A DNA stretch of 64,000 bases from a bacterium (GTDB lineage: Bacteria > Patescibacteriota > CPR2 > UBA1875 > JAJYID01), in contig JAJYLR010000001.1 in the NCBI GenBank assembly GCA_021787535.1, positions 147,648-211,647 on the forward strand. Direction: 5' to 3'. The position numbers and the translations under genes are program-made. The stretch's first letter is position 1. Each line of letters starts with the position of its first letter. Shown here piece after piece: positions 766-56,837 of the stretch. Under the pieces are notes generated by a model. That model ran no database searches. It saw nothing but the letters and a program-made list of their open reading frames with translations, and was not told the origin of the DNA.

Positions 766-830
766 TGTTGTCCTGAAGATTGACTCAGATCATAGATTAT
801 ATAGATTCCGGATCAAGTCTGGAATGACAG
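766..830 (+). repeat. composite miniature palindromic repeat, long form, copy 1 (TGTCCTGAAG...GATTCCGGATCAAGTCTGGAATGACA)
   Basis: near-identical copies at 28228-28290 and 34921-34982, each in a gene-gene spacer. Confidence 0.85.
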
Positions 831-4060: not shown

Positions 4061-4584
4061 ATGAAGAAAGTATCAAAAAAGCGGCTGAGAAATTTTATGA
4101 GATTCGGGATATTCCTTATCATATTGCTTTAGATGGAGAGAAAGATTGGAGTTGTGGTAGCAAGAACAAGAAATTAGCGAAGGAATTAGAGCAGTTGGGA
4201 TATAAAACTAGAGAAAGAATTGCCCTTTTTAGATGGACTGAGCAAGGTTTACCTAAAGAGGCGTTAGTCAATGTTGATGAAGATGAATGTTCACATTTGT
4301 TTCTGGAAGTCATACCTCCTGGGCAAGACAATTGGATTACAGTCGATGCAACATGGAACTCAGAATTAAAGCCATCTACCTTGCCTGTAGCAGAATGGGA
4401 TGGATTAAAACCAACGGCTAATGCAGTTAAATATTATGAAATAATTCCTGTGGAGAAGAATAAGGAATATTTAGATTCAATCGATGAACAGGAAGATTTA
4501 AAAATGAATTACAAAATTTACGATGCATTTAACAAATATTGTGATGGTTTTTTAGAAAAGAGGGATAATGCCGGTAGCAATTAA
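4057..4584 (+). CDS. transglutaminase-like (Cys-His-Asp) domain protein, hypothetical
   Basis: ordered C (WSCGSK), H (CSHLFLEV), D (VDATWN) spacing resembles transglutaminase-like core; overlaps iscS stop. Confidence 0.3.
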   Translation: MNEESIKKAAEKFYEIRDIPYHIALDGEKDWSCGSKNKKLAKELEQLGYKTRERIALFRWTEQGLPKEALVNVDEDECSHLFLEVIPPGQDNWITVDATWNSELKPSTLPVAEWDGLKPTANAVKYYEIIPVEKNKEYLDSIDEQEDLKMNYKIYDAFNKYCDGFLEKRDNAGSN

Positions 4585-5173
4585 CTTTAAGATTTGTGAT
4601 AACGCTGAAGAATGCAACGGGATAGAAGTTTGCCCGACTGGTGCGCTTTCTTGGGATGATAAGAAAAAAACAATTGTCATAGACAACACAAAATGCACCA
4701 GCTGCGGAGCTTGCGAACGTTCCTGTATGGTTCAAGCCATTAAAGTCGGCAGAACCAAAGAGGAATTTGCCAAAATCCAAAAAGAAATAGAGGAAGATTC
4801 GAGAAAAGTTTCAGATTTATACCTTGACCGATATGGGGCAATGCCGATTTTGCCGGCGTTCTTGATTGAAGAAGACAAATTTGAACGCGAGGTATTAAAG
4901 GCATCCAAGTTAACAGCGGTAGAAGTTTTCGCAAATGAGGGAATTATGTGCTTACTTAAATCAATTCCAATAACAGAACTTTTTGACGGCTTGGACATAA
5001 AGTTTAGAAAAATGGAGATAAAGAACAAGAAATTCTTGGATGATTATGATATTAAAGAACTTCCAGCACTCTTGTTTTTCTTAGAAGGCAAGTTGGCTGG
5101 CAAAGTTGAAGGTTATTTCGAAAATGAAAACAAACAAGCGTTAAAGGAAAAGGTTAAAGTGATAATAGGTTAA
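4568..5173 (+). CDS. 4Fe-4S ferredoxin-domain protein fused to thioredoxin-like (CxxC-less) C-terminal domain
   Basis: N-terminal CPTGAL...CTSCGACERSC ferredoxin-type Cys cluster; C-terminal PALLFFLEGKLAGKVEGY thioredoxin-fold-like. Confidence 0.45.
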   Translation: MPVAINFKICDNAEECNGIEVCPTGALSWDDKKKTIVIDNTKCTSCGACERSCMVQAIKVGRTKEEFAKIQKEIEEDSRKVSDLYLDRYGAMPILPAFLIEEDKFEREVLKASKLTAVEVFANEGIMCLLKSIPITELFDGLDIKFRKMEIKNKKFLDDYDIKELPALLFFLEGKLAGKVEGYFENENKQALKEKVKVIIG

Positions 5174-5179
5174 TTATTA

Positions 5180-5204
5180 GATTCTGGACAAGCCAGAATG
5201 ACAG
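5180..5204 (+). repeat. GAATGACA-hairpin repeat (GATTCTGGACAAGCCAGAATGACA)
   Basis: 7-bp stem ATTCTGG/CCAGAAT; followed by tandem GGAAATTG array 5221-5257 and degenerate copy 5291-5316. Confidence 0.85.
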
Positions 5205-5332
5205 ATTGAAGATTGTCTCATTGAGGATTGATTGGAAATTGGAAATTGTGAATTGGAAATTAAAAGTAAAGGGATTCCTCGACTTGTCCTTAACAGGAAG
5301 TCGCTCGGAATGACAAAAAGGAGACTAAATTT

Positions 5333-5740: not shown

Positions 5741-5844
5741 ATTCAAATCCCAATTCAAAAATTTCTTAAATTAAAAATTGGACATTCATTAGGAATTAGG
5801 AATTCTTAATTTTTAATTGGATTCCCGACTTCTCGGGAATGACA
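5741..5844 (+). repeat. tandem AATT/GGAATT-type octamer array followed by hairpin repeat GGATTCCCGACTTCTCGGGAATGACA
   Basis: compensatory stem variant (CCCG/CGGG instead of CTGG/CCAG). Confidence 0.8.
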
Positions 5845-10648: not shown

Positions 10649-12613
10649 ATGAATTCAAATAAACTAAGGCAAAAATTTCTGAAATTTTTTGAGGAGAAGG
10701 GGCACAAGGTTATCTCTTCAGCTTCGCTCGTGCCTGAAAACGACCCCTCGGTGCTTTTTACAACCGCCGGCATGCATCCGCTCGTGCCATATCTCATGGG
10801 TGAGAAACATCCGCTTGGGAAGAGATTAGTTGACATTCAGAAGTGTATTCGCACCGGTGACATCGACGAGGTTGGCGATATTCAGCACATGACATTCTTT
10901 GAGATGCTTGGCTACTGGTCGCTTGGCGATTACTTTAAAAAAGAATCCATTCACTACACCTATGATTTTTATACAAAAGTTCTGGGCATTGACGGCGATA
11001 AAATCTCTGTGACGGTGTTTAAAGGAGATAATGACGCACCGTTTGACCAAGAGTCGTATGACACTTGGAAAGCAATTGGTATTCCTGAAGATAGAATATA
11101 TAAATATCCTAAAAAAGAAAACTGGTGGGGGCCGGTCACAGATACGGGACCGTGCGGACCTTGCACTGAAATGTTTATCGATACCGGACTAGAATCCTGT
11201 GGGCCGGACTGCGGACCTTCGTGCAACTGCGATAAATTCGTCGAAATAGGCAACAACGTTTTCATGGAATATTTCAAAAACCACGAAGGGAAGTTCGAGA
11301 AGCTGGAGCAGAAAAATGTCGATGTCGGACTTGGCTTTGAACGGCTGGTAATGATTGTGAATGAGCTCGATACCGTATTTGAGACGGATCTTTTCACCGG
11401 TATTATCGGGAAAATTAAAGAGCTGGCTTCTCCTTCTGTCATTCCCGCGCAGGCGGGAATCCAGACGGAATCTAAGGAAAATTCCATCCGTGTAATCGCC
11501 GACCATATGCGGGCGGCAACGATGGCGATAGCGGATGAGGTAGAGCCGTCTAATCTGGATAGGGGTTATGTGGTTCGCAGGTTGATCCGTCGCTCTATCC
11601 GTCACGGAAGACTTATCGGAATTGAGGGCAAATTTACGGCAGAAATAGCCAAAGAAGTAGTGAAGTCACTAGGCGATGTCTATCCTGAACTTAAAGATAA
11701 TGAAGAATTTATTTACTCGGAACTTGATAAGGAAGAGGAGAAGTTTAATGACCTAATCATTAAAATAAAACCTAAGGAGAATAAAAGAGTAGAAATAAGA
11801 AAAAGGCTAGAAAAAGAAATCATAGATGCTGATAAAAAATGGATACTCGATGATACAAAAGTTGCTGGTATCAAATTTGATGACTTGAACGAGGAATATC
11901 AGAAGAGCCCAAGAAAATTCGTTACAACTGTTTCTGGGGCGATGGCCTTTAGGATGGAAACCACACATGGTTGGCCCAGTGATTTGTATTTTGAAGATAT
12001 TGCCGAGAAATTGATTAGTGAAGAACCAAGTAAAAGTATTACTATCGAAAAAAAAATTAGTGAAGAAAAAAAGGCGTATGAAGAGTTTGTAAAAAAGCAC
12101 CAGGAATTATCCAGAAAAGGCGCCGAGAAAAAGTTTAAAGGCGGGCTTGGTGAGGTTTCTGAGAAAACCATTAAATATCACACGGCTACTCATTTATTGC
12201 ACGAGGCGCTCAGACAGGTGCTTGGCAATCACGTCTACCAGAAAGGGTCGAATATTACAGCAGAAAGAATGCGGTTTGACTTTACCCATCCGGACAAAAT
12301 GACCGATGAAGAAAAAAAGAAGGTCGAAGATATTGTAAACGAACAGATTCAGGCCAAGTTACCGGTTATTGAAACCATTACGACCGTGGAAGAGGCGAAA
12401 GGTGAGGGAGCGATCGGACTTTTTGAAGCCAAATACGGAGAAAAAGTGAAAGTTTACTCGATCGGCGGGCCACTCGATTCGCCTGATGCATTTTCCAAGG
12501 AAATCTGTGGCGGCCCGCATGTCAAAAACACCGGCGAACTCGGCCATTTCAGGATTAAAAAAGAGGAATCAAGTTCTAAGGGAGTAAGGCGCATTAAAGC
12601 CGTTTTGGAGTAA
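10649..12613 (+). CDS. alaS: alanyl-tRNA synthetase (short form lacking C-Ala domain)
   Basis: class II AlaRS catalytic core (FTTAGM, GDIDEVG) and editing domain HxxxH (HTATHLLHEALR), CGGPHV; 654 aa; contains in-frame palindromic repeat at 11438-11466. Confidence 0.9.
   Translation: MNSNKLRQKFLKFFEEKGHKVISSASLVPENDPSVLFTTAGMHPLVPYLMGEKHPLGKRLVDIQKCIRTGDIDEVGDIQHMTFFEMLGYWSLGDYFKKESIHYTYDFYTKVLGIDGDKISVTVFKGDNDAPFDQESYDTWKAIGIPEDRIYKYPKKENWWGPVTDTGPCGPCTEMFIDTGLESCGPDCGPSCNCDKFVEIGNNVFMEYFKNHEGKFEKLEQKNVDVGLGFERLVMIVNELDTVFETDLFTGIIGKIKELASPSVIPAQAGIQTESKENSIRVIADHMRAATMAIADEVEPSNLDRGYVVRRLIRRSIRHGRLIGIEGKFTAEIAKEVVKSLGDVYPELKDNEEFIYSELDKEEEKFNDLIIKIKPKENKRVEIRKRLEKEIIDADKKWILDDTKVAGIKFDDLNEEYQKSPRKFVTTVSGAMAFRMETTHGWPSDLYFEDIAEKLISEEPSKSITIEKKISEEKKAYEEFVKKHQELSRKGAEKKFKGGLGEVSEKTIKYHTATHLLHEALRQVLGNHVYQKGSNITAERMRFDFTHPDKMTDEEKKKVEDIVNEQIQAKLPVIETITTVEEAKGEGAIGLFEAKYGEKVKVYSIGGPLDSPDAFSKEICGGPHVKNTGELGHFRIKKEESSSKGVRRIKAVLE
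11438..11466 (-). repeat. hairpin repeat inserted in frame in alaS (reverse orientation; encodes VIPAQAGIQ)
   Basis: GTCATTCCCGCGCAGGCGGGAATCCAG = reverse complement of CTGGATTCCCGC...GCGGGAATGAC family consensus. Confidence 0.75.
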
Positions 12614-15728: not shown

Positions 15729-15743
15729 TCCTTAAAATTTCCA

Positions 15744-16193
15744 ATGACCAATCAATTTTCAAATTTTAAATTTCCAAAAAATATTAAGGCAGTAGCGCTT
15801 GATGTCGGGGAAAAAAGGATCGGAATTGCATACAGTGAAGATGGCATATTTGCGTTTCCTTTGAAAACCGTGCCTGCCGGTAATATTGCAGCGGAGATTT
15901 TGCAAATTGCAGAGGGAGGATCCCTTGAACGCATTATCATCGGGCTTCCCAGGAATATGGACGGATCGCTGGGATTTCAGACTGATAAGGTCAAGTCATT
16001 TGTGAGTGATAATCTGGCAAAATATCTGGATTTAGTGGAATATATCGATGAGACGGCTACAAGCGTTGAAGCGGCAGATCTTATGCGGGTTGAAGGCAAA
16101 GATCCCCGTAAAAATCCAGGGCTAATCGATGCGTATTCGGCTAAAATTATCCTTGAAGATTGGATTAGCAAAGTGAAAGGAAAAAACAAATGA
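15744..16193 (+). CDS. ruvX: Holliday-junction resolvase-like YqgF/RuvX
   Basis: ALDVGEKRIGIAYSE... RNase H-like YqgF signature, 149 aa. Confidence 0.8.
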   Translation: MTNQFSNFKFPKNIKAVALDVGEKRIGIAYSEDGIFAFPLKTVPAGNIAAEILQIAEGGSLERIIIGLPRNMDGSLGFQTDKVKSFVSDNLAKYLDLVEYIDETATSVEAADLMRVEGKDPRKNPGLIDAYSAKIILEDWISKVKGKNK

Positions 16194-23044: not shown

Positions 23045-25957
23045 ATGAGTAACAAATATGATCATAAAAAAATAGAATCCAAGTGGCGCGATATTTGGGA
23101 GAAAGCCGGTCTTAACCGGACTGATTTAAAGTCAGTCAAACCCAAACACTACAATCTCGTCATGTTTCCGTATCCGAGCGCTGAGTATATCCATCTCGGC
23201 CATATTTACTCTTACTCCGGAGCTGATGTTTATGGGCGATACCAGAGATTGAAAGGCAAAAATGTCTTTGAGCCGATCGGTTTTGATTCATTTGGCCTGC
23301 CGGCTGAAAACTTTGCTATAAAAAAAGGCATTCATCCGGAAAAGGTGATTGATCATGCAATCGATCAATCTACGAGACAGCTGAAAGAAGCCGGCTTTAT
23401 GTTCGACTGGTTCCGGGAAGTGATCACTTCAAAGCCGGATTACTACAAATGGACTCAGTTGCTTTTCTTAAAACTATATGATCAAGGGTTGGCATATCGG
23501 AAAGAAGCGCCGGTGAATTGGTGCCCGAGCTGCAAGACGGTTTTGGCAAATGAACAGGTGAAAGATGGTTTGTGCGACCGTTGTGACACTGAGGTTGTAC
23601 AAAAGGAAATGAAGCAATGGTTTTTCAAAGTAACCGATTACGCCGAGAGATTGATAAAAGACTTGGACAAAGTTGACTGGCCTGAATCGTCGAAAATTAA
23701 ACAAAGGAACTGGATCGGCAGAAGTGAGGGTGTGGAGATGGATATGCAGATTACAGACTCTAAAGAAAAGTTTTCGGTATTTACCACTCGCATTGATACG
23801 GTTTACGGCATGACATATGTGGTGCTGGCACCGGAACATCCATTAGTTAATAAAATCACGACTGACAAACAGAAGAAAGAAGTTGAAAAGTACAAGATTC
23901 AGGCGCAGAAACAGACAGAGATCGAGAGGCAGTCGCTCGAAAAGGATAAAACAGGGGTATTTACAGGATCGTATGCTATAAATCCGTTTACCGGTGAGAA
24001 GGTGCCCATTTGGATAGCTGATTATGTACTTTTTGGTTATGGAACCGGTGCTGTGATGGCGGTACCGGCTCACGATGAGCGCGACTTCGAATTTGCCAAA
24101 AAGTACAAGCTTCCTATTATCCAGTCTATTGCGCCTCATAGTGTGGATACAAAAAATCCTCCGAGAAAAGGTAAAACAGATACTAGAAGAAAAGTAGTAC
24201 ATGTGATTTTGGAAAATGATAAGGGCGAGGTACTTACTTTAAATCTCAAGGGTCAGGAATGGGGTGATAATAAGCCCAAAACACTCATCATCGGCGGTAT
24301 AGAAGATAGGGAATCTCCGGAAGAAGCCGCCATGCGGGAGATCGAGGAAGAAACCGGTTACACAGATGTCCAGATTTCAGAGGTTTACCCGATTGAATTT
24401 CATGCTGAGTTTTTTGCCGCCCATAAAGATGTTAATCGTTATGTAGAAACAGTGGGTGTTTTCTGTCAACTGAAGTCTGAGAAAAAAGTTCCTGTCAGTG
24501 AAAATGAAAAGAAGCTGCATGAAATTATCTGGGTTAAGAAAAAAAATCTTCTTTCTTCCGTAACCATCCCTGACGATATTTTTCTAGCGAAAGCTTATGT
24601 AGAAAAAATTGGCAGCTACACTGAATATGGTGTACTTATCAATTCTGGCAAGTTCACCGGCCTTATCTACGAAGAAGCTAAAAAGAAAATGGCTGATTGG
24701 CTGGAGAAGAAAGGCATTGGCTCTCGCAAAATTAATTACCGTCTTCATGATTGGTCTATTGGACGACAAAGATACTGGGGAGCGCCGATACCGATCATTC
24801 ATTGCGACAAATGCGGGGTAGTGCCGGTTCCGGAGAAAGATTTGCCGGTTAAACTGCCGGAAAATATCAAAGATTTCCGGCCGAAAGGGACGGGGAAAGG
24901 TCCTTTGGCTAGCGTATCTGAATTTGTAAACGTAAAATGTCCAAGATGCGGAGGTAAAGCAGAGCGAGAAACTGATACCATGGATACTTTTGTCGACTCC
25001 AGCTTTTATTTCCTTCGTTATCCGAGTACGGGGGATGATACTCAAATGATGGAGCCAAAGGTTACCAAAAAATGGCTGCCTGTTGATATGTATGTCGGTG
25101 GTGCTGAACATGTAACCATGCATTTGCTTTATGCCAGATTTATCACGAAGGCCTTACATGATGCCAAACTGATTACTTTTGATGAGCCATTTATGAAGCT
25201 TCGCCATCAGGGATATATTTTGGGTCCGGATGGTAAAAAGATGTCTAAGTCAAAGGGCAATGTTGTTAATCCGGACGGCGTTGTCAAAGAGCATGGAGCG
25301 GACGCTTTCAGAACCTACATACTCTTTATGGCTCGGTTTGAAGACGGCGGTCCGTGGAACCCCAAAGGTTTAGTCGGTGTCAGCCGATTTCTGGAAAAGA
25401 TTTGGAGAATTGGAATTGGGTTGGATTCCCGTCTGCACGGGAATGACAATAAGGGTAATTGGCCGGACGTGTCTAGCACAGAGGTGCAGGCAAAACTTGC
25501 CAGAACTATCAAAAAGGTTGGGGAAGATATTGAGAGCTTTAAATTTAATACAGCCGTAGCTTCGCTTATGACGCTTATGAATGGCATCTCAGTTGAGAAA
25601 AGACCAGATGAAGATTGGATTAGTAAAGGAGACTTTGAAAAACTTCTGATTATTCTTGCGCCGTTTGCGCCATTTATAACCGAAGAACTTTGGGAAAAGC
25701 TTGGTAACAAGGATAGTATTCATGTAGAGAAGTGGCCGGCTTATGATGAAAAACTGATCCAGGAAGAGGCGGTGACAATCGCTGTACAGGTTAACGGCAA
25801 AGTCCGCGATCAGCTGGTTGTGAATGTCGATAGTGCAAAAGACGAAGTTTTTGAACTGGCAAAGGCAAGTGAGAAGGTGCAGAAGTATTTGTTAGATAAA
25901 GAGGTTAAAAAGGTTATCTATATCGAAGGTAAGCTACTTAGTCTTGTCGTGAACTAG
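23045..25957 (+). CDS. leuS: leucyl-tRNA synthetase with internal Nudix-domain insertion
   Basis: HIGH (HLGH), TTRIDT, AVPAHDERD, KMSKS; ~165-aa insertion (aa ~363-528) containing perfect Nudix box GGIEDRESPEEAAMREIEEETGY; second small in-frame palindromic-repeat insertion at 25423-25448. Confidence 0.9.
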   Translation: MSNKYDHKKIESKWRDIWEKAGLNRTDLKSVKPKHYNLVMFPYPSAEYIHLGHIYSYSGADVYGRYQRLKGKNVFEPIGFDSFGLPAENFAIKKGIHPEKVIDHAIDQSTRQLKEAGFMFDWFREVITSKPDYYKWTQLLFLKLYDQGLAYRKEAPVNWCPSCKTVLANEQVKDGLCDRCDTEVVQKEMKQWFFKVTDYAERLIKDLDKVDWPESSKIKQRNWIGRSEGVEMDMQITDSKEKFSVFTTRIDTVYGMTYVVLAPEHPLVNKITTDKQKKEVEKYKIQAQKQTEIERQSLEKDKTGVFTGSYAINPFTGEKVPIWIADYVLFGYGTGAVMAVPAHDERDFEFAKKYKLPIIQSIAPHSVDTKNPPRKGKTDTRRKVVHVILENDKGEVLTLNLKGQEWGDNKPKTLIIGGIEDRESPEEAAMREIEEETGYTDVQISEVYPIEFHAEFFAAHKDVNRYVETVGVFCQLKSEKKVPVSENEKKLHEIIWVKKKNLLSSVTIPDDIFLAKAYVEKIGSYTEYGVLINSGKFTGLIYEEAKKKMADWLEKKGIGSRKINYRLHDWSIGRQRYWGAPIPIIHCDKCGVVPVPEKDLPVKLPENIKDFRPKGTGKGPLASVSEFVNVKCPRCGGKAERETDTMDTFVDSSFYFLRYPSTGDDTQMMEPKVTKKWLPVDMYVGGAEHVTMHLLYARFITKALHDAKLITFDEPFMKLRHQGYILGPDGKKMSKSKGNVVNPDGVVKEHGADAFRTYILFMARFEDGGPWNPKGLVGVSRFLEKIWRIGIGLDSRLHGNDNKGNWPDVSSTEVQAKLARTIKKVGEDIESFKFNTAVASLMTLMNGISVEKRPDEDWISKGDFEKLLIILAPFAPFITEELWEKLGNKDSIHVEKWPAYDEKLIQEEAVTIAVQVNGKVRDQLVVNVDSAKDEVFELAKASEKVQKYLLDKEVKKVIYIEGKLLSLVVN
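25411..25448 (+). repeat. octamer (GAATTGGAATTGGG) plus hairpin repeat GGATTCCCGTCTGCACGGGAATGACA inserted in frame in leuS (encodes ...LDSRLHGNDNK)
   Basis: same family as intergenic copies. Confidence 0.75.
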
Positions 25958-25992: not shown

Positions 25993-26066
25993 TGTCATTC
26001 TCGGGCTTGACCCGGGAATCTATGAGTTAAATTTAAAAAATAGATCCTGTTTTCACAGGAATGACA
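25993..26066 (-). repeat. reverse-orientation hairpin repeat (TGTCATTCTCGGGCTTGACCCGGGAATC) plus half-copy ending GGAATGACA that supplies yceD ATG
   Basis: family consensus. Confidence 0.7.
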
Positions 26067-26525
26067 GAAAAAGTAAATTTGAAAATGACCAAAAAACCTT
26101 CAGATAACATAGATAATTCGGTTTATATTAACGTTAAAGATTTTCTGATCAAAGGGCCAGTAGGCGATACGGAAACGATTCCAATTCATGAAACATTCGA
26201 AAAATCGCTCGATCCGGAAAATACGCTTAGGTCTTTCGAAGGCAGTATCAAACTGACTCTGCTTGAGGAAGAGATTTTAGCAGAGTTCAGCGTCGAATAT
26301 TTAGCAAAAACGATTTGTGTCAGATGTTTGAAAAGGTTTGATCGAGAAGGCAGTCTGGCATTTGAAAGAGTATACTTGCTTGGTAGAAGAACGGCTGCGG
26401 ACGGCGAACTGATTGTCGGCAAGGATTTCCAAATTGAAGTTGGTGGGCCGATACTCGAAGAAATTAACTTCGATATACCGATGAAACCATTATGTAAAAC
26501 AGATTGTCAAGGATTTAACAAATAA
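26061..26525 (+). CDS. yceD: YceD/DUF177-family protein
   Basis: position upstream of rpmF, C-terminal CxxC...C..C motif (ICVRCLKRF...LCKTDCQGF); start ATG lies inside repeat terminus GAATGACA (alt. start 26085). Confidence 0.6.
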   Translation: MTEKVNLKMTKKPSDNIDNSVYINVKDFLIKGPVGDTETIPIHETFEKSLDPENTLRSFEGSIKLTLLEEEILAEFSVEYLAKTICVRCLKRFDREGSLAFERVYLLGRRTAADGELIVGKDFQIEVGGPILEEINFDIPMKPLCKTDCQGFNK

Positions 26526-26799: not shown

Positions 26800-26907
26800 C
26801 CAAACGAATTCCAATTTCCAAATTCAACACGTTTCTAATTTGAATATTGAGATTTGTTTGTATCTTGCATCTTGGTGATTGTATCTTTTAAAACGGGAGT
26901 TTAAACA

Positions 26908-28227: not shown

Positions 28228-28290
28228 TGTCATCCTGAACTTAATTCAGGATCCAGATCGTATAGATTCCGGATCAAGTCCAGAATGACA
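28228..28290 (+). repeat. composite long-form repeat copy 2
   Basis: matches 766-830. Confidence 0.85.
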
Positions 28291-34920: not shown

Positions 34921-34982
34921 TGTCACTGCGAACTTAATTCAGAATCCATAAAATAGATTCCGGATCGGAGTCCGGAATGACA
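34921..34982 (+). repeat. composite long-form repeat copy 3 (compensatory CGGAG/TCCGG stem)
   Basis: matches 766-830 with covariation. Confidence 0.85.
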
Positions 34983-35502: not shown

Positions 35503-35528
35503 TGTCATTCCCGCGGAGGCGGGAATCC
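35503..35528 (-). repeat. hairpin repeat, reverse orientation (TGTCATTCCCGCGGAGGCGGGAATCC)
   Basis: family consensus; second copy forward at 35633-35655. Confidence 0.8.
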
Positions 35529-35700
35529 AGTCAATTAAAATTAATTCTACTTTTTCTAAAAAAGTAGATAATATTTTTAAAGAGATAGATTGCCCATCTA
35601 TGTGGGAATAGAAGAAAACTGATGACTTAATAGATTCTGGTCAAGCCAGAATGACCCGTCACTATTACACAGTGCGGGGCAAGCATGTTAAAATAAGGAT

Positions 35701-36440: not shown

Positions 36441-36564
36441 ATTGGAAATTGGTAATTGCTGATTGGAAATTCTAAAACCTCTTTACACCACCGGCAAGAA
36501 TATTTAATATTTAATGTATAGATTACCGTTTTTACGGGAATGATAGAGAAAACGGGAATGACAA
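36441..36564 (+). repeat. tandem GATTGGAAATTGG array plus degenerate hairpin repeats ending GGGAATGACA
   Basis: family consensus. Confidence 0.6.
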
Positions 36565-37750: not shown

Positions 37751-39925
37751 ATGGACAAATTTGTTTTGAAAAGCGGTTATAAAATGACTGGAGATCAACC
37801 GGAGGCGGCGGCCAGTTTAATCCGCGGTCTTGAAAATGGTCTGGACAAGCAAATTCTGCTGGGTGTGACGGGGTCCGGCAAGACTTTCACGGCGGCCAAT
37901 GTGATCCAGAAAATCAACAAACCGACTCTGGTCATTTCACATAACAAAACTCTGGCGGCGCAGCTGTATAGCGAATTCAAAGAATTTTTCCCCGATAATG
38001 CCGTGCGCTACTTTGTTTCTTACTACGACTACTACCAGCCGGAAGCTTACATCCCTCGTACCGATACCTATATTGAAAAAGACGCATCTATTAACGAAGA
38101 AATAGACCGGCTCAGAAATGCGGCAACGGCAGCTCTACTCTCAAGAAAGGATACCCTTATTGTCGCCAGCGTTTCCTGTATCTACGGTCTTGGTTCGCCT
38201 GAAGATTATATTAACATGAAAATAGATTTTGAAGCCGGCAAGGCGAAAAATCAGGAGAAAGCTATGCGCCAGCTTCTGGCAGTGCAGTACGAGCGAAATG
38301 ATCAGTCATTTGAAAGGGGAAAGTTCCGTGTGCGCGGCGATGTTCTGGACATTTATCCGATCTATGAGGAGAAAGCGGTACGCGTGACTTTCGATAATGA
38401 TATTGTGGAGTCAATTCGAGATCTCAATCCCGTGACAGGCGAGCTGGGCAAGAGAGTGGATAATGTTTCGATATTCCCGGCCAAGCACTTCGTCACGCCC
38501 AGGGAGAAACTGCTCTCAGCTATTCCGGAGATTGAGCGCGACCTGGCCAGCAGATTAGCCGAACTGAAGAAGCAGGGCAAACTGCTTGAAGCGCAGCGGC
38601 TGGAGCAGAGAACCAAGTTCGACCTGGAAATGATCCGAGAGACCGGCTACTGCTCGGGGATCGAGAACTATTCTCGTTATCTGGCAGGCCGTGCACCGGG
38701 CGAACCGCCGGCAACGCTTCTCGACTTCTTTCCTGATGATTTTCTAATGCTGATCGACGAGTCCCACATGACCATTCCGCAGATCAGAGGCATGTACAAC
38801 GGCGACCGATCGCGCAAAGAAACGCTTATCGAGCACGGATTTCGCCTGCCCTCAGCCCTCGATAATCGTCCGCTGCACTTCAGTGAATTTAAAAAATTCA
38901 TGAGCCCGGCCATCTTTATCTCAGCCACGCCGGGGGACTACGAATTCAAAACGGCCAGCGGACACAAGATTAACTCGGCCGATGAATATTACGAGGCGGC
39001 AAGAAGCAATGATCAATTTCCAATTTCCAATTTCCAATCAATTTCCAATGATCAAAATTCAAACAAAAACAGTCATTCTGGGGACGACAGGACTCCAGAA
39101 TCGGTTTTGGACAAGGATTCTGGACAAGCCAGAATGACAGGAAAAGGGTTCTCCTGGATTTCTGAACAGGTTATCCGCCCGACGGGGCTTCTCGATCCCG
39201 AGGTGGAAGTGCGCCCGAACAAGAACCAGATTGACGACCTCATTCACGCAATCCAGCTTAGGGTCAAGAAGGAGCAAAGGGTTTTGGTGACGACTTTAAC
39301 GAAAAGAATGGCCGAGGACCTAAGCGAATACTTGAAAGAGCTAAACATCAAGGTGACCTATATTCATTCGGAAATTAATACCTTGGAACGTCCGGAAATC
39401 CTGCGTGATCTTAGAAAAGGCGTCTATGACGTAGTTGTCGGCGTCAATCTTTTGCGGGAAGGTCTGGATCTGCCGGAAGTATCGCTGGTAGCAATCTTGG
39501 ACGCCGACAAGGAAGGATTTCTGCGCGGAGAGAACGCCCTCATTCAGACCATCGGGCGAGCGGCGCGGCACTCAGAAGGCAAGGTAATAATGTATGGCGA
39601 TACCATGACTTTATCTATGGAGCGAGCGATCAGCGAGACTCAACGAAGGCGCAGGATTCAAGAGGAATATAATAAAAAGCATGGCATTACGCCAAAGACT
39701 ATTAAAAAAGCTATTCGCGAAGACATCGTCCGGTCGGAAAAAAGAAAGAAAGAACCCAAATTCGAGATTACTGATATGCCGGCCGATGAACTTGAGCGCA
39801 TAGTTCAAGACATGCGTAAGAAAATGGAAATCGCCTCAAAGAACTTAGAATTTGAGCAGGCAGCCAAACTCCGCGACCAGATACAAGACATTAGAGCGAA
39901 GATAGAGTCAAAGAAAATAAAATAG
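37751..39925 (+). CDS. uvrB: excinuclease ABC subunit B
   Basis: [10 protein letters not shown] Walker A, DESH, helicase motifs, C-terminal UVR domain ([10 protein letters not shown]); ~50-aa in-frame repeat-derived insertion at 39000-39140. Confidence 0.9.
39001..39139 (+). repeat. composite element inside uvrB: (CAATTTC)n tandem array, hairpin GTCATTCTGG..CCAGAAT, hairpin GATTCTGGACAAGCCAGAATGACA; all in frame
   Basis: encodes ...[13 protein letters not shown]...[10 protein letters not shown]. Confidence 0.8.
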
Positions 39926-48491: not shown

Positions 48492-50045
48492 ATGGATGTG
48501 AAAAGGGAAGTTAAAAAATTGCCGGCGAGTCCGGGGGTATACATTTACCGCAACTCGCGGGGCAGAATAATCTATATTGGCAAAGCGATTTCAATTCGTC
48601 ATCGGGTGAGCCAGTATTTTCAAGATGCGCGGGGATTGGATGATAAGACGCGGAGGCTGGTGCCCGAGATAGCCAAGATTGAATATATAAAGACAGGTTC
48701 TGAGGTAGAGGCATTAATCTTGGAAGCGGAGCTCATCAAGCGCTACAAGCCGAAGTTTAACATCCAGTGGAAGGACGATAAAAACTATGTCTATATCAAA
48801 ATCACGGCTGAGGATTACCCGCAGGTATCTTTGGTTAGACAGATCGTAGACGATAAAGCGCGCTACATCGGTCCCTTTGTCAGTGCCGGAGCGGTAAGAG
48901 GGCTTCTGAGATATGTCCGGAGGATATTTATGTTTAGGCATTGTGAGAACATGCCTCAGAAAGTTTGCCTGCAATACTCTATCGGCAACTGTACGGGTCC
49001 GTGCCAAAAATACATAACAAAGGCCGAATACAACAAAAACATTCGCAGGATGATCAAGCTTTTTCAGGGTAAGACCAAGGAGATTGAGAGGGAATTTAGT
49101 CGGGAGATGAAGCAGGCAGCTAAGAATGAGGATTTTGAGAAGGCGGCCATGTATAGGAATAGGTTGATGTGGTTGAAAAAGATTAAAACGATCGAGCTAG
49201 ATAAAGAAGATTTTGATTCCGGACAAGCCAGAATGACGAGGGATAAGGGATTAATCGGTTTGCGGGACGCACTGGACCTTGGCTCGGTTCCGAAGCGGAT
49301 AGAGTGTTATGACATCTCTAATATATTCGGAAAAGCGGCGGTGGGCTCAATGGTAGTTTTTATAGACGGGCTGCCGGATAAAGCGCACTACAGGAGGTTT
49401 GAGATTAAGACGGTAGATAAGATTTCGGATACTGATATGATCAAGGAAGTTCTCTCGAGAAGGTTCAGAAAATTCACCGATTCTGGACAAGCCAGAATGA
49501 CAAAGCAAAGGGATTCTTCGCGGAGTTTATCCGTCTTTGGCGGGCTTAGAATGACAGGGAAGGATAGCGTGGACAAATCTTTTACTCAAGTACCTGACCT
49601 CATTATCATCGACGGCGGGAAGGGCCAGCTGTCGGTGGCGGAGAAGGCGCTCAATGAGTATAGCCTGCATCTAAACTTGGTGTCGCTTGCCAAAAGGCGC
49701 GAGGAGATATTCAAGAAGGATTATGGTCAAGCCAGAATGACGAGGGTAGGCAAGCAAAACGGAAATTTTCAGAAAATTACACTGCCGGAAGGCTCTGAGA
49801 GCTTGTATTTGGTTCAGCGCATTCGTGATGAGGCACACAGATTTGCCATAACTTATCACAGAAGCAAGCGCGGCAAGGAGATGGAAGCGTCAAATCTGGA
49901 TGCCATATCTGGTATTGGCCCAAAAACCAAAAAAAAGCTTCTTAGAAATTTTGGTTCACTTGAAAACATAAGAAAAGCATCAAAAGAAGATTTAGCCGAG
50001 ATAGTCGGCGGGAAACTGGCTCAAAAGATCAAAGAAAAACTTTAG
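48492..50045 (+). CDS. uvrC: excinuclease ABC subunit C (compact, with 3-4 in-frame palindromic-repeat insertions)
   Basis: GIY-YIG (VYIYRNSRGRIIYIGKA), UVR domain, endonuclease domain, C-terminal (HhH)2 ISGIGPKTKKKLL; repeated SGQARMT peptides. Confidence 0.9.
   Translation: MDVKREVKKLPASPGVYIYRNSRGRIIYIGKAISIRHRVSQYFQDARGLDDKTRRLVPEIAKIEYIKTGSEVEALILEAELIKRYKPKFNIQWKDDKNYVYIKITAEDYPQVSLVRQIVDDKARYIGPFVSAGAVRGLLRYVRRIFMFRHCENMPQKVCLQYSIGNCTGPCQKYITKAEYNKNIRRMIKLFQGKTKEIEREFSREMKQAAKNEDFEKAAMYRNRLMWLKKIKTIELDKEDFDSGQARMTRDKGLIGLRDALDLGSVPKRIECYDISNIFGKAAVGSMVVFIDGLPDKAHYRRFEIKTVDKISDTDMIKEVLSRRFRKFTDSGQARMTKQRDSSRSLSVFGGLRMTGKDSVDKSFTQVPDLIIIDGGKGQLSVAEKALNEYSLHLNLVSLAKRREEIFKKDYGQARMTRVGKQNGNFQKITLPEGSESLYLVQRIRDEAHRFAITYHRSKRGKEMEASNLDAISGIGPKTKKKLLRNFGSLENIRKASKEDLAEIVGGKLAQKIKEKL
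49215..49750 (+). repeat. three to four hairpin-repeat copies inserted in frame in uvrC (49215-49237, 49479-49502, 49511-49556, 49728-49750)
   Basis: each read in same frame giving (D)SGQARMT. Confidence 0.8.
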
Positions 50046-51216: not shown

Positions 51217-51239
51217 GTCATTCTGGCTTATCCAGAATC
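51217..51239 (-). repeat. hairpin repeat, reverse orientation (GTCATTCTGGCTTATCCAGAATC)
   Basis: family consensus. Confidence 0.8.
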
Positions 51240-54754: not shown

Positions 54755-54843
54755 GCTGCGGTGGCGGAATTGGTAGACGCGCTGGCTTGAGGGGCCAGTG
54801 GCCCGAAACGGCCGTGGAGGTTCAAGTCCTCTCCGCAGCACCA
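54755..54843 (+). tRNA. tRNA-Leu (anticodon GAG)
   Basis: hand-folded cloverleaf: acceptor GCTGCGG/CCGCAGC, anticodon loop TTGAGGG, long variable arm, GGTTCAAGTCC T-arm, encoded CCA. Confidence 0.85.
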
Positions 54844-54989
54844 AAAACTAAATACCCTCACAGGGTTTTTAGTTTTGGGTAATGCTGAGGTGGTGAGAAT
54901 CTTCTGTAGACGCCCAGAAAAATCATAAACAATGTTACAAGACTTTCAATGAGATTGATGTGAGTTTATTAGAGAATTAAACTCAAAGG

Positions 54990-55084
54990 CGGCGAGCCGC
55001 TTCAAGTCCTCGCAGCAAGCACCAAACTTCGCTCTGAATTTTTCAGAACTACGCTTGGCAGGCCAACGAAGTTATTTGCAAGGT
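54990..55084 (+). repeat. ~95-bp direct repeat copy A: tRNA-Leu 3'-half-like fragment (TTCAAGTCCTCGCAGCAAGCACCA) plus ~70-nt hairpin-rich tail
   Basis: near-identical to copy B at 56955-57047; compensatory changes in internal hairpin. Confidence 0.7.
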
Positions 55085-55147
55085 GAGAAACACAGAATAG
55101 AATAGAATTTTAATGAAGCCGAGAGGGCTTTTTTTGACGCTTTCTAA

Positions 55148-56035
55148 TCAATACCTTTGCAACACCTGAGCTGGTGTTTTAAGGCCAATGCCCAGATGCC
55201 TCCTTTCATTGTTGTAGTAATCCAGATAGCTTTTAATCCTTGCTTCAATTCCTTTCTCCAGCCATAGCTTTTCACATTCTTCCTGAATGGTTCTATTGAA
55301 TCTTTCAATGTGAGCATTATCATTTGGTTTTCTGACTCTGGAATGTCTGAGTTTTGTTCCTTTGTAGCCAAGCATGTCAGAAAACCATTTGCCAAATTCA
55401 GGTCCGTTATCTGTTTGGACTGTTTTAAATCTAAATCCTGCTAGTTTCTGTGCTTTTAAGACAAACTTCAAGCTGTTGGTTTGAGAAAACCTCTCAGTAT
55501 ATTCCGCATAAGCAAATCTTGAGTAAAGATCGATTAATGTATAGACATAATATCTAGTTCCATCATCTCTAACAAAGTGAATGGTGTCTAACTGAACCAA
55601 GTCACCCGGTTGAAAGACAAAAGGCCTGGGAATATGCGGCCTGAAGCGTTTCCACTTTGATTTTTCTCTGATCAATCCCTGTCTTTTAAGGGTTCTTTTC
55701 ACTGAGGATAAACTAACTTTAATATCTCTTTCCTTTAAATCCTCGTAGATCACTTCAGCGCATCTGTTGTGTTTTAATCTTTCTTCTCTGATTGCCTCAA
55801 TAATATCCTGGGGCAGTTCTTTCGGATGATGGTGAGGTCTTGAGCTTCTGGTTTGAAGATGAGCGTTTAATGAAAGATATTCCTCCCTATATCTTTTTGC
55901 CCATCTTGAAACAGAAGAGTAGGAATATCCAAAGTGACGGGCTACCTGCCTGGTTGAATATCCTTGCTTTAACATTCTGACAGCTTGCAATCTAACCTTT
56001 GGCATATTGGGATTTTTTGTGTATGACATACTCAT
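55148..56035 (-). CDS. DDE transposase (rve/integrase core, IS481/IS3 superfamily) with N-terminal HTH
   Basis: HTH QVARHFGYSYSSVSRWAKRY; DDE residues in VQLDTIHF, VQTDNGPEF, HIERFNRTIQEE. Confidence 0.8.
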   Translation of the reverse strand: MSMSYTKNPNMPKVRLQAVRMLKQGYSTRQVARHFGYSYSSVSRWAKRYREEYLSLNAHLQTRSSRPHHHPKELPQDIIEAIREERLKHNRCAEVIYEDLKERDIKVSLSSVKRTLKRQGLIREKSKWKRFRPHIPRPFVFQPGDLVQLDTIHFVRDDGTRYYVYTLIDLYSRFAYAEYTERFSQTNSLKFVLKAQKLAGFRFKTVQTDNGPEFGKWFSDMLGYKGTKLRHSRVRKPNDNAHIERFNRTIQEECEKLWLEKGIEARIKSYLDYYNNERRHLGIGLKTPAQVLQRY

Positions 56036-56067
56036 AATTTTAATGCAAAGTGTTGCAAAGGTATTGA
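55148..56067 (-). mobile_element. IS481-like insertion sequence (~920 bp) with 18-bp terminal inverted repeats TCAATACCTTTGCAACAC
   Basis: IRs at 55148-55165 and 56050-56067 (reverse complement) bracketing single transposase ORF. Confidence 0.75.
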
Positions 56068-56156
56068 ACCATTACGTTTTGATTGACAGATATAAACTTT
56101 TATGGTACTTTATTAATCATAACTTTTGTTGCCTAGGAATATTTATCTGAAAAGGA

Positions 56157-56384
56157 GTGATGGTAGTGATGGTAATGAAGAAAGGAACGAAGGTGGTAAC
56201 ATTTTTCAAAGAGGAGGATCTGAGCGAGATGAGAGACGCCGGTCTCACTGATGGTATGAAAGGAGTGATCATCAGTGACCCGATACCTGCCCATAAAGGG
56301 AGCTCATTTCGTGTTCGTTGCGAGAATGGGATCGAAATAAAGCTTCATGAATCTCACTTGCAGCTAACATCAGCGGACGGGTAG
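56157..56384 (+). CDS. hypothetical 75-aa protein
   Basis: GGAGTG RBS; ends exactly at tRNA-Val start. Confidence 0.25.
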   Translation: MMVVMVMKKGTKVVTFFKEEDLSEMRDAGLTDGMKGVIISDPIPAHKGSSFRVRCENGIEIKLHESHLQLTSADG

Positions 56385-56461
56385 CTTAACTGGCTAAAGT
56401 GCCGGCTCGACATGCCGGAAATTGAAGGTTCAAATCCTTTCCCGTCCGCCAACATTTGAGG
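56385..56461 (+). tRNA. tRNA-Val (anticodon GAC; unusual C33)
   Basis: hand-folded: acceptor GGACGGG/CCCGTCC, anticodon stem CCGGC/GCCGG loop TCGACAT, T-arm GAAGGTTCAAATCCTTT, encoded CCA. Confidence 0.7.
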
Positions 56462-56485
56462 GGATTTATCCTCTCTTGCAGAGAC

Positions 56486-56560
56486 TGCTCCAGTAGCTTA
56501 ACTGGTAAAACGTCGGGTCGTTATTTGAAGGTTACCAGTTCAAATCTTACCTTGGGCAGG
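56486..56560 (+). pseudogene. degenerate tRNA-like duplicate (pseudo-tRNA)
   Basis: shares GTAGCTTAACTGG.TAAA and GAAGGTT...CAAATC with adjacent tRNA-Val but T-arm and anticodon stem do not pair; 7-nt ACCAGTT insertion. Confidence 0.3.
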
Positions 56561-56645
56561 CAATTTATCTGGGCGTCCGCGAATCTTGGGCGCCCATTTT
56601 TCTTTTACAAATTCAGATCTTATAGTATAATATTTCAGTATTTTT

Positions 56646-56722
56646 GGGCGCTTAGCTCAGCTGGCTAGAGCGACTGGTTTACACCCAGTAGGTCGAGGGT
56701 TCGAGTCCCCCAGCGCCCACCA
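56646..56722 (+). tRNA. tRNA-Val (anticodon TAC)
   Basis: acceptor GGGCGCT/AGCGCCC, D-arm GCTCAGCTGGCTAGAGC, anticodon loop TTTACAC, T-loop TTCGAGT, CCA. Confidence 0.85.
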
Positions 56723-56750
56723 TAGAAAATTTCGCTGAAAATATTGAAAA

Positions 56751-56837
56751 GCCGCGGTGGCGGAACTGGTAGACGCGCTGGCTTCAGGTGCCAGTGAAAG
56801 CAATTTCGTGGAGGTTCGAGTCCTCTCCGCGGCACCA
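56751..56837 (+). tRNA. tRNA-Leu (anticodon CAG)
   Basis: acceptor GCCGCGG/CCGCGGC, anticodon loop TTCAGGT, long variable arm, CCA; paralogous to tRNA-Leu(GAG) at 54755. Confidence 0.85.

Follow-up and report, generated by a model that had tools for sequence, protein, structure and literature searches.

Why should the gene of a DNA-repair enzyme carry the same small hairpin several times over, always read as the same peptide? The question is raised by uvrC (48492–50045, plus strand), whose open reading frame (ORF) encodes a UvrC of 517 amino acids (aa) in a 64-kb stretch of a Patescibacteriota genome (contig JAJYLR010000001.1, positions 147,648 to 211,647; hereafter, the window). The gene hosts hairpin insertions built on a 23-nt unit with the consensus GATT(C/A)(C/T)GGNCAAGCCAGAATGAC, which occurs three times and is always read D(S/Y)GQARMT. 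Judged from its sequence, the uvrC repeat is a short-stem subfamily of the Ssn-related hairpins, i.e., elements of the Neisseria dRS3/NTS type. We place it there because its flanks match the positions critical for the nuclease SsnA, because small GIY-YIG genes abut the hairpin, and because this partner is homologous to an NTS-flanked Neisseria gene. With a probability of roughly 80%, we read the uvrC pattern as the outcome of Ssn-type hairpins being copied in and surviving in permissive UvrC loops as inert extensions.

Outside the inserted segments, the window UvrC is canonical and contains all expected Pfam domains, i.e., GIY-YIG (aa 14–90), UVR (203–230), RNase H (259–453) and HhH (468–517). 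Since every column that is invariant in an alignment of 113 UvrC orthologues is retained (by definition of invariant columns), the enzyme is probably functional. Three independent assemblies (NCBI, ENA and Logan) contain a 100% identical protein, which excludes assembly error as the source of the segments. The three copies, all on the plus strand and read from their first G, occupy sites that we term B, C and D. Copy 1 at site B (49215–49237; GATTCCGGACAAGCCAGAATGAC) is read DSGQARMT (aa 242–249; codons GAT TCC GGA CAA GCC AGA ATG ACG) and contains one stem mismatch, as does copy 3 at site D (49719–49741; GATTATGGTCAAGCCAGAATGAC), which is read DYGQARMT (aa 410–417). Copy 2 at site C (49479–49501; GATTCTGGACAAGCCAGAATGAC; DSGQARMT, aa 330–337) has a perfect 7-bp stem and a 5-nt loop and, folded as single-stranded DNA (ssDNA), is the only strong hairpin among the uvrC copies (−5.5 kcal/mol, z = −5.9), the fold energies of copies 1 and 3 being −1.2 and −2.6 kcal/mol, respectively. 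The insertion at site D spans 13 codons (49719–49757, plus strand), in which the core of copy 3 is followed by RVGKQ, and is a gap in the relatives L001 and L003. A further plus-strand unit at site C (49512–49556; GATTCTTCGCGGAGTTTATCCGTCTTTGGCGGGCTTAGAATGAC, read DSSRSLSVFGGLRMT) keeps both flanks (GATTCTTCGCGGAGTTTATCCGTC...AGAATGAC, its 3′ end also written GGGCTTAGAATGAC) and the same frame, and folds no better than shuffled sequence. Its interior, GGAGTTTATCCG, matches a composite repeat at site C of the orthologue P0013, and it is best described as a decayed copy of this different, composite repeat, which belongs to another subfamily.

These data bear directly on the initial annotation of the locus. 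Its central observations, a canonical UvrC and the same hairpin inserted in frame several times, are confirmed as three copies plus one decayed unit. The coordinates given for copy 1 are exact, whereas those given for copy 3 (49728–49750) lay 9 nt downstream of its position; the degenerate second unit that it described is real, with flanks and frame kept, yet belongs to another subfamily. The identical frame that it noted applies throughout uvrC, but elsewhere other frames and an antisense orientation are used (VIPAQAGIQ in alaS). The kinship of the element with the Ssn-related hairpins (dRS3/NTS) went unnoticed in that annotation. A frame that creates a stop was also rightly predicted: the +1 frame of the hairpin, ATT CTG GAC AAG CCA GAA TGA, gives ILDKPE*, which elsewhere is seen at gene ends only.

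Two orthologue alignments (20 and 113 sequences) and a third, at codon level, that includes three close relatives bear out the earlier proposal that the segments are lineage-specific insertions. The best homologues of the window UvrC are Patescibacteria/WS5-like proteins with a modal length of 471–479 aa, against 517 aa here. In all alignments the hairpin segments are indels that most of the clade lacks, as does P0002, the closest relative (471 aa, 84% aa identity). Sites C (aa 329–357) and D (aa 410–422) are clean gaps in P0002 and in most other orthologues, and the copy 2 region at site C is a clean insertion relative to L001 in the codon alignment; at site B (aa 240–249), an ERDLK-type stretch of the insert-free orthologues is replaced, with a net gain of 4–5 codons. 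About one third of the 113 orthologues have extra residues, clustered after window aa 152, 239, 329, 359, 411 and 423, and these inserts are often hairpin-type peptides such as DSRLRGND, IPASAGMT, VIPAKAGI, IPEQAGIH and …ARDD. Filled and empty states are interleaved on a neighbour-joining tree built from gap-free alignment columns. P0013, for example, has 56 additional aa at site C and 20 at site D, and P0014, with 91.6% nucleotide identity to it, has neither. Site D holds the QARMT type in the window and in P0009 and the DSRLRGND type in P0003, P0005 and P0013, while the copy at site B has decayed to LNSGEARTA in both P0013 and P0014.

In the uvrC gene of P0013 (locus L122), site D (~2820–2890 of the locus) contains a complete hairpin, after which the 3′ half-unit (…GGGAATGAC) appears twice more, so that the translation reads GNDK-VGRGNDK-GGNRNDG. 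This arrangement is suggestive of slippage at the 3′ flank, or of partial copying repeated there; on this side Ssn reportedly cuts the opposite strand. The sequence after this hairpin (GACAAGGTAGGGC) resembles that after copy 3 of the window (GACGAGGGTAGGC).

Mapped onto structure, as had been proposed, the segments are low-confidence coil in a predicted model and gaps against solved chains. In the AlphaFold2 model, built from the 113-sequence alignment with a mean predicted local distance difference test score (pLDDT) of 85.5, the score drops below 50 solely at aa 239–249 and 344–357 and is 59 over the site D block (aa 411–420); the segments are modelled as coil, except for a low-confidence helix extension over aa 330–338. 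The alignment with 2nrt, the C-terminal half of T. maritima UvrC, breaks at query aa 327–367, where that chain has 2 residues, and shows a 13+3-residue gap at site D; 3c65 gives the same break and gap at sites C and D. Site B is thus an inter-domain linker, as first annotated for all of the insertions, whereas sites C and D are loops within the RNase H-like endonuclease domain.

What kind of element is the hairpin? In Neisseria, the dRS3/NTS hairpin (CGTCATTCCCGCGMAVGCGGGAATCYRG) and, more generally, Ssn-related motifs (SRMs, the generalised NTS) flank ssnA, the gene of a single-domain GIY-YIG nuclease of 94 aa (Chenal et al. 2025, Nat Commun 16:2388, PMC11893778). Binding by SsnA is restricted to one strand of the hairpin, in single-stranded form, and cleavage takes place a few nt 5′ of the hairpin; cutting depends critically on the GTC 5′ of the palindrome, and binding on the C 3′ of it (PMC11893778). 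Read on the other strand, these critical GTC and C positions correspond to the G…GAC flanks that are invariant in the hairpins described here. Indeed, all four uvrC units, and all seven copies of the 17-mer core found in the window, read GTC-ATT…AAT-C on the minus strand, the recognised-strand form being GTC-ATTCTGG-CTTGT-CCAGAAT-C (minus-strand sequence TTTGTCATTCTGGCTTGTCCAGAATCGGT).

A scan of one genome per species with the exact 23-mer (GATTCYGGNCAAGCCAGAATGAC) returned at least 117 loci, and the ORFs of these loci, called crudely, were clustered to find recurrent neighbours. Small GIY-YIG genes recur, with the hairpin exactly at their 3′ end or flanking them on both sides, and the hairpin supplies their final residues together with the TGA stop (…ILDKPE*). 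Genes with the hairpin at the 3′ end are found in L054 (1826–2200), L084 (864–1220), L114 (5888–6187) and L090 (4176–4484), and in L041 (1642–1984) a GIY-YIG gene lies between an inverted pair of hairpins, forming a unit of ~343 bp. Of the best 120 of 1240 homologues, which are 87–154 aa long and contain PF01541 as their sole domain, 79 have some hairpin-coded tail, and in 58 the protein terminates with I[LP]DKPE*. With P0121 as query, tblastn identified an N. gonorrhoeae locus at 45–47% identity over 89–95% of the length (E = 1e-18); canonical NTS lie on both sides of this locus, and its gene matches ssnA. The small GIY-YIG protein had no named counterpart in NCBIfam or the PDB. In the window itself, the published SRM pattern, HGTCWYN(0-2)YYVSBRHN(0-5)WNVSBRGN(0-2)RNCYNB, fits two hairpins (11437–11464 and 25993–26023), against 0.16 expected in shuffles.

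Three other small gene families, assigned by sequence motifs only, recur near the hairpins in unrelated genomes: proteins that resemble the four-helix-bundle proteins of the 23S rRNA intervening-sequence type (L038 1954–2319, L090 1267–1641, L099 3447–3794), GxxExxY-type proteins with a probable PD-(D/E)XK fold (L026, L032, L041 3079–3480), and Y1 transposase-like proteins with a YHVxNRG motif (L006 3717–4388, L011 865–1605, L055 4102–4722).

The 23-mer is shared, letter for letter, by distant hosts, i.e., many Patescibacteria lineages, Nitrospirota/Thermodesulfovibrionia, uncultured Gammaproteobacteria, Bacteroidota and others, and the loci listed also include Ignavibacteria, Chlorobiales, Desantisbacteria and Nitrospinota. 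Its presence in several phyla implies either horizontal spread or very tight constraint by the partner nuclease. Among the loci listed, long ORFs contain 20 of the 126 exact copies from other genomes (16%), and 13 of these 20 use the DSGQARMT frame (P = 1.5e-5); with the window included, the count is 17 of 24 intragenic copies against an expected one in five (P = 1e-7). The stop-containing frame is met at gene ends only. Of the peptides from the five open frames, hydrophilicity is highest for DSGQARM and FWTSQND, and hydrophobicity for VILACPE. The hosts of the 20 intragenic copies are unrelated housekeeping genes, including those for ArgRS, TruB, TrmD, GuaA, MurC, TatD, DNA ligase and glycosyltransferases. 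A preference for excision-repair genes was considered and rejected, none of the 20 being in uvrB or uvrC.

Within the window, the 17-mer core GGACAAGCCAGAATGAC occurs seven times with at most two mismatches, against 0.00 expected from shuffles. Three copies are in uvrC, which makes up 2.4% of the window (1.55 kb; P = 4.7e-4), and four are in uvrB or uvrC (P = 3.5e-4). The uvrB copy is exact (39116–39138, plus strand) and read in frame as DSGQARMT (aa 456–463). A second exact copy (5180–5202, plus strand) is intergenic, 7 nt past the stop of ORF 4568–5173, and copies with one loop mismatch (35633–35655, plus strand) and with one mismatch (51217–51239, minus strand) are also intergenic. In uvrB, aa 400–469 (38948–39157) form an insertion of ~65–70 aa that is missing from all solved UvrB structures. 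It is composed of heptamer repeats and a head-to-head hairpin doublet, in which a related, inverted hairpin (39072–39102, minus strand) stands 13 nt upstream of the exact plus-strand copy; the doublet folds with −14.2 kcal/mol (z = −4.7).

The heptamer repeats constitute a second repeat family, TTGGAAA(TTGGAAA)n, with 14 matches in the window against 0.9 expected, located at 5232–5262 and 36442–36458 on the plus strand and at 15735–15777, 26805–26828 and 39007–39055 on the minus strand. The peptide from the uvrB heptamer copy is also present at site C of the P0013 UvrC.

When all occurrences of GAATGAC in the window were listed, a wider family of ~14 further hairpins emerged, with the layout [TA/TG]GATTC-stem-loop-stem-GAATGACA, in which the flanks (GATTC...GAATGAC) are fixed, and the stems vary yet remain self-complementary. 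One of them, a canonical NTS/dRS3-type hairpin (11438–11461, minus strand GATTCCCGCCTGCGCGGGAATGAC, plus strand TGTCATTCCCGCGCAGGCGGGAATCCAG), lies in frame and antisense in alaS as VIPAQAGIQ, a segment that corresponds to a ~9-aa gap against solved AlaRS. Another, GATTCCCGTCTGCACGGGAATGAC (25424–25447, plus strand), is in frame in leuS as DSRLHGND, where no clear indel is seen against solved LeuRS. Intergenic members are GATTCCCGGGTCAAGCCCGAGAATGAC (25994–26020, minus strand), which fits the published SRM pattern, GATTCCGGATCAAGTCTGGAATGAC (804–828, plus strand), a long hairpin GATTCCTCGACTT...AAGTCGCTCGGAATGAC (5273–5314, plus strand), GATTCCCGACTTCTCGGGAATGAC (5820–5843, plus strand), GATTCCGGATCGGAGTCCGGAATGAC (34956–34981, plus strand) and GATTCCCGCCTCCGCGGGAATGAC (35504–35527, minus strand). 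The GAATGAC listing further gave GATTCCGGATCAAGTCCAGAATGAC (28265–28289, plus strand), plus-strand hairpins at 26043 and 36521, and one at 2212 on the minus strand. In total, about 8 of 22 window hairpins lie within genes, although ORFs cover ~89% of the window (P = 5e-9). The first ATG of ORF 26061–26525 is the ATG within the GAATGAC flank of the hairpin at 26043–26065, which may supply or directly overlie the start codon of this ORF.

The hairpins are also unevenly distributed between the strands. With 59 of 70 long ORFs on the plus strand and a positive GC skew in each 8-kb block (+0.05 to +0.17), it is probably this strand that serves as leading strand over the entire window. GATTC…GAATGAC is on the plus strand in 15 of 21 window hairpins; the strand recognised by Ssn is thus mostly the minus strand, which is not exposed as lagging-strand template. 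Relative to neighbouring genes there is a modest sense bias (93:55), which in the window is inseparable from the replication-strand bias.

How does this family compare with the published SRM/NTS elements? Both are oriented palindromes of 20–50 nt with GTC 5′ of the stem and C 3′ of it; both are mostly intergenic and border, at one end or at both, a gene of ~95 aa with GIY-YIG as its single domain; and the density of ~21 in 64 kb is comparable to the hundreds of copies per genome reported in PMC11893778. In addition, the window itself holds canonical NTS-type copies, those fitted by the published pattern. They differ in that the uvrC subfamily has a 7-bp stem and a WCAAG loop, that the hairpin here overlaps the reading frame of its cognate gene and provides its stop, and that intragenic copies, in frame in essential genes, reach ~36% in the window and 16% of the exact copies elsewhere, whereas NTS are seldom in genes (2% in N. 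meningitidis 8013; PMC11893778). PMC11893778 discusses neither Patescibacteria nor copies in coding regions.

In their coding context the hairpins recall the Rickettsia palindromic elements (RPEs; Ogata et al. 2000 Science 290:347; reviewed in PMC10969869), a resemblance pointed out in the initial annotation and valid as an analogy. In both cases, a bacterium with a reduced genome carries a palindromic repeat in frame in numerous unrelated housekeeping genes, where it encodes a conserved peptide thought to sit at surface regions tolerated by the fold; here, such in-frame insertions are found in uvrC, uvrB, alaS and the 20 diverse host genes elsewhere. However, RPEs are ~100–150 bp long (30–50 aa), genus-restricted and without an established partner enzyme, whereas the hairpins described here comprise 23 nt (8 aa) and the exact 23-mer spans several phyla.

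Taken together, these observations lead us to the following scenario for uvrC. An Ssn-dependent or recombination/repair-dependent process would spread hairpin copies through the genome. A copy landing in coding sequence would survive only if it alters the length by a multiple of three, is read in a frame free of stops and sits in a disordered surface loop, with a strong preference for the small and hydrophilic forward frame DSGQARMT, and selection would remove all other coding insertions. UvrC offers four permissive loops, three of them filled in the window lineage, and in sister lineages the same loops hold other hairpin subfamilies or are empty. Because UvrC has several such loops, hairpin copies would accumulate there, and the most likely outcome is that translation turns the segments into inert extensions of these loops, with UvrC remaining functional.

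Several points weigh against this scenario. No copying mechanism is known for SRMs, and tblastn detected no ssn gene in the 64-kb window. The published SRM pattern fits none of the uvrC, uvrB and 5180 copies, its failure on the uvrC subfamily being due to the short stem. At the insertion sites themselves, site B is a replacement and no clean 24-nt insertion in the codon alignment, and no target-site duplication is visible in the comparisons of filled with empty sites. The translation of the uvrC segments is something we infer. Finally, identical residues at site B share codons in 17 of 21 between-species comparisons, against 42–46% in the rest of uvrC (P = 8e-4). Passive old junk does not fit, because this codon identity exceeds the synonymous-site conservation elsewhere; it points to recent independent insertion, gene conversion from other copies, or selection at the DNA level.

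The last of these raises the possibility, the main rival and in our view doubtful but worth weighing, that intragenic copies are retained for a role of the DNA itself. They would be kept at the nucleotide level as Ssn targets in essential genes and rewritten into the same loops by Ssn-dependent ssDNA copying or gene conversion across phyla, the peptide being a tolerated by-product. Such sites could fragment incoming homologous ssDNA and thereby limit allele replacement in transformation, following the Neisseria model, in which NTS reduce the integration of transforming DNA, as shown for NTS/SsnA in N. meningitidis (PMC11893778). Besides the codon conservation at site B, which exceeds that of synonymous sites in the rest of uvrC, this explanation would account for the intact SsnA-critical flanks of all four uvrC units, even with a stem mismatch, for the refilling of the same loops by different subfamilies in different lineages, and for the location of four of the seven window copies in uvrB or uvrC. 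On the other hand, mismatches weaken the stems of two of the three uvrC copies, the fourth unit has decayed, the site B copy of P0013 and P0014 is degenerate, and the window has no detectable ssn. Moreover, the 20 intragenic copies elsewhere sit in unrelated housekeeping genes with no bias to excision repair, and they represent a strong depletion from coding sequence that fits purifying selection against insertion and not selection in its favour. If coding copies were indeed maintained at the DNA level, the Ssn/SRM system would police core-gene recombination and generate 8-aa loop cassettes, in hosts taken to be naturally DNA-importing, reduced-genome bacteria.

[quoted passage not shown] The likeness to REP/REPIN–RAYT systems is considerable, as both have a short conserved 5′ motif with a variable palindrome, inverted, head-to-head doublets (39072–39138 in the window), a small partner nuclease gene amid its own repeats, and recognition of a single-stranded hairpin; Chenal et al. 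likewise note the insertion sequence-like NTS-ssnA-NTS layout and the analogy to REP/RAYT (PMC11893778). Y1 transposase-like ORFs do occur in three of the at least 117 loci. Yet these genes lie 1–3 kb from the hairpins and are not adjacent to them (L006, L011 and L055), whereas the hairpin abuts or overlaps GIY-YIG genes in five loci and does so for 79 of the 120 best homologues; the partner is a GIY-YIG nuclease, in contrast to the HUH Y1 transposase of RAYT. The 5′ motif here is GTCA and not GTAG, the one typical of REPs, and REPs are essentially extragenic and species-specific. As for MITEs, neither terminal inverted repeats beyond the hairpin nor target-site duplications are found at filled versus empty sites.

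That the segments are ancestral, assembly artefacts or removed before the mature protein in the manner of introns or inteins is very improbable, since only the sharing of site B by several lineages could by itself suggest ancestry, while the segments are missing from most orthologues, the nearest included, the protein is identical in independent assemblies, and splicing would make the strong filtering of frame and stop codons needless and finds no Rfam match and no intein or intron features in 24–81 nt.

DNA uptake sequences are biased to repair genes. This class of element was set aside for the hairpins in view of their low density (~1 per 9 kb), their 23-nt hairpin form and their tie to ssn genes.

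The Ssn-related element family (2025) and in-frame palindromic insertions (RPE, 2000) are already known. In the literature searched, we found neither Ssn-type hairpins recurring in frame at fixed loop hot spots of Patescibacteria core enzymes, nor a short-stem WCAAG-loop subfamily identical across phyla, nor its overlap with the stop codon of the partner gene; searches on the hairpin peptide strings and on palindromic or REP repeats in Patescibacteria/candidate phyla radiation returned nothing relevant. Our reading of uvrC as a host of Ssn-type insertions therefore joins two literatures that are unconnected in the papers searched, the 2025 Ssn/NTS hairpin–nuclease system and the RPE puzzle of "selfish DNA inside proteins". 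Under this reading, Ssn-type hairpins are able to colonise coding sequence, a short-stem subfamily overlooked by the published pattern is identical in Patescibacteria, Nitrospirota and other phyla, and the stop codon of the partner gene comes from the hairpin itself. Annotation would gain an explanation for many odd low-complexity inserts in proteins of uncultured bacteria (…SGQARMT…, …DSRLRGND…, …IPA.AGMT…, …VIPAKAGI…), and the hairpins would mark permissive loops in UvrC and UvrB. For mechanism, the filled and empty sites of close relatives offer natural substrates for studying how hairpins are copied.

At Rfam gathering thresholds, the window gave no match at the hairpins; its only matches are four tRNA genes, which are clustered at 54755–56834.

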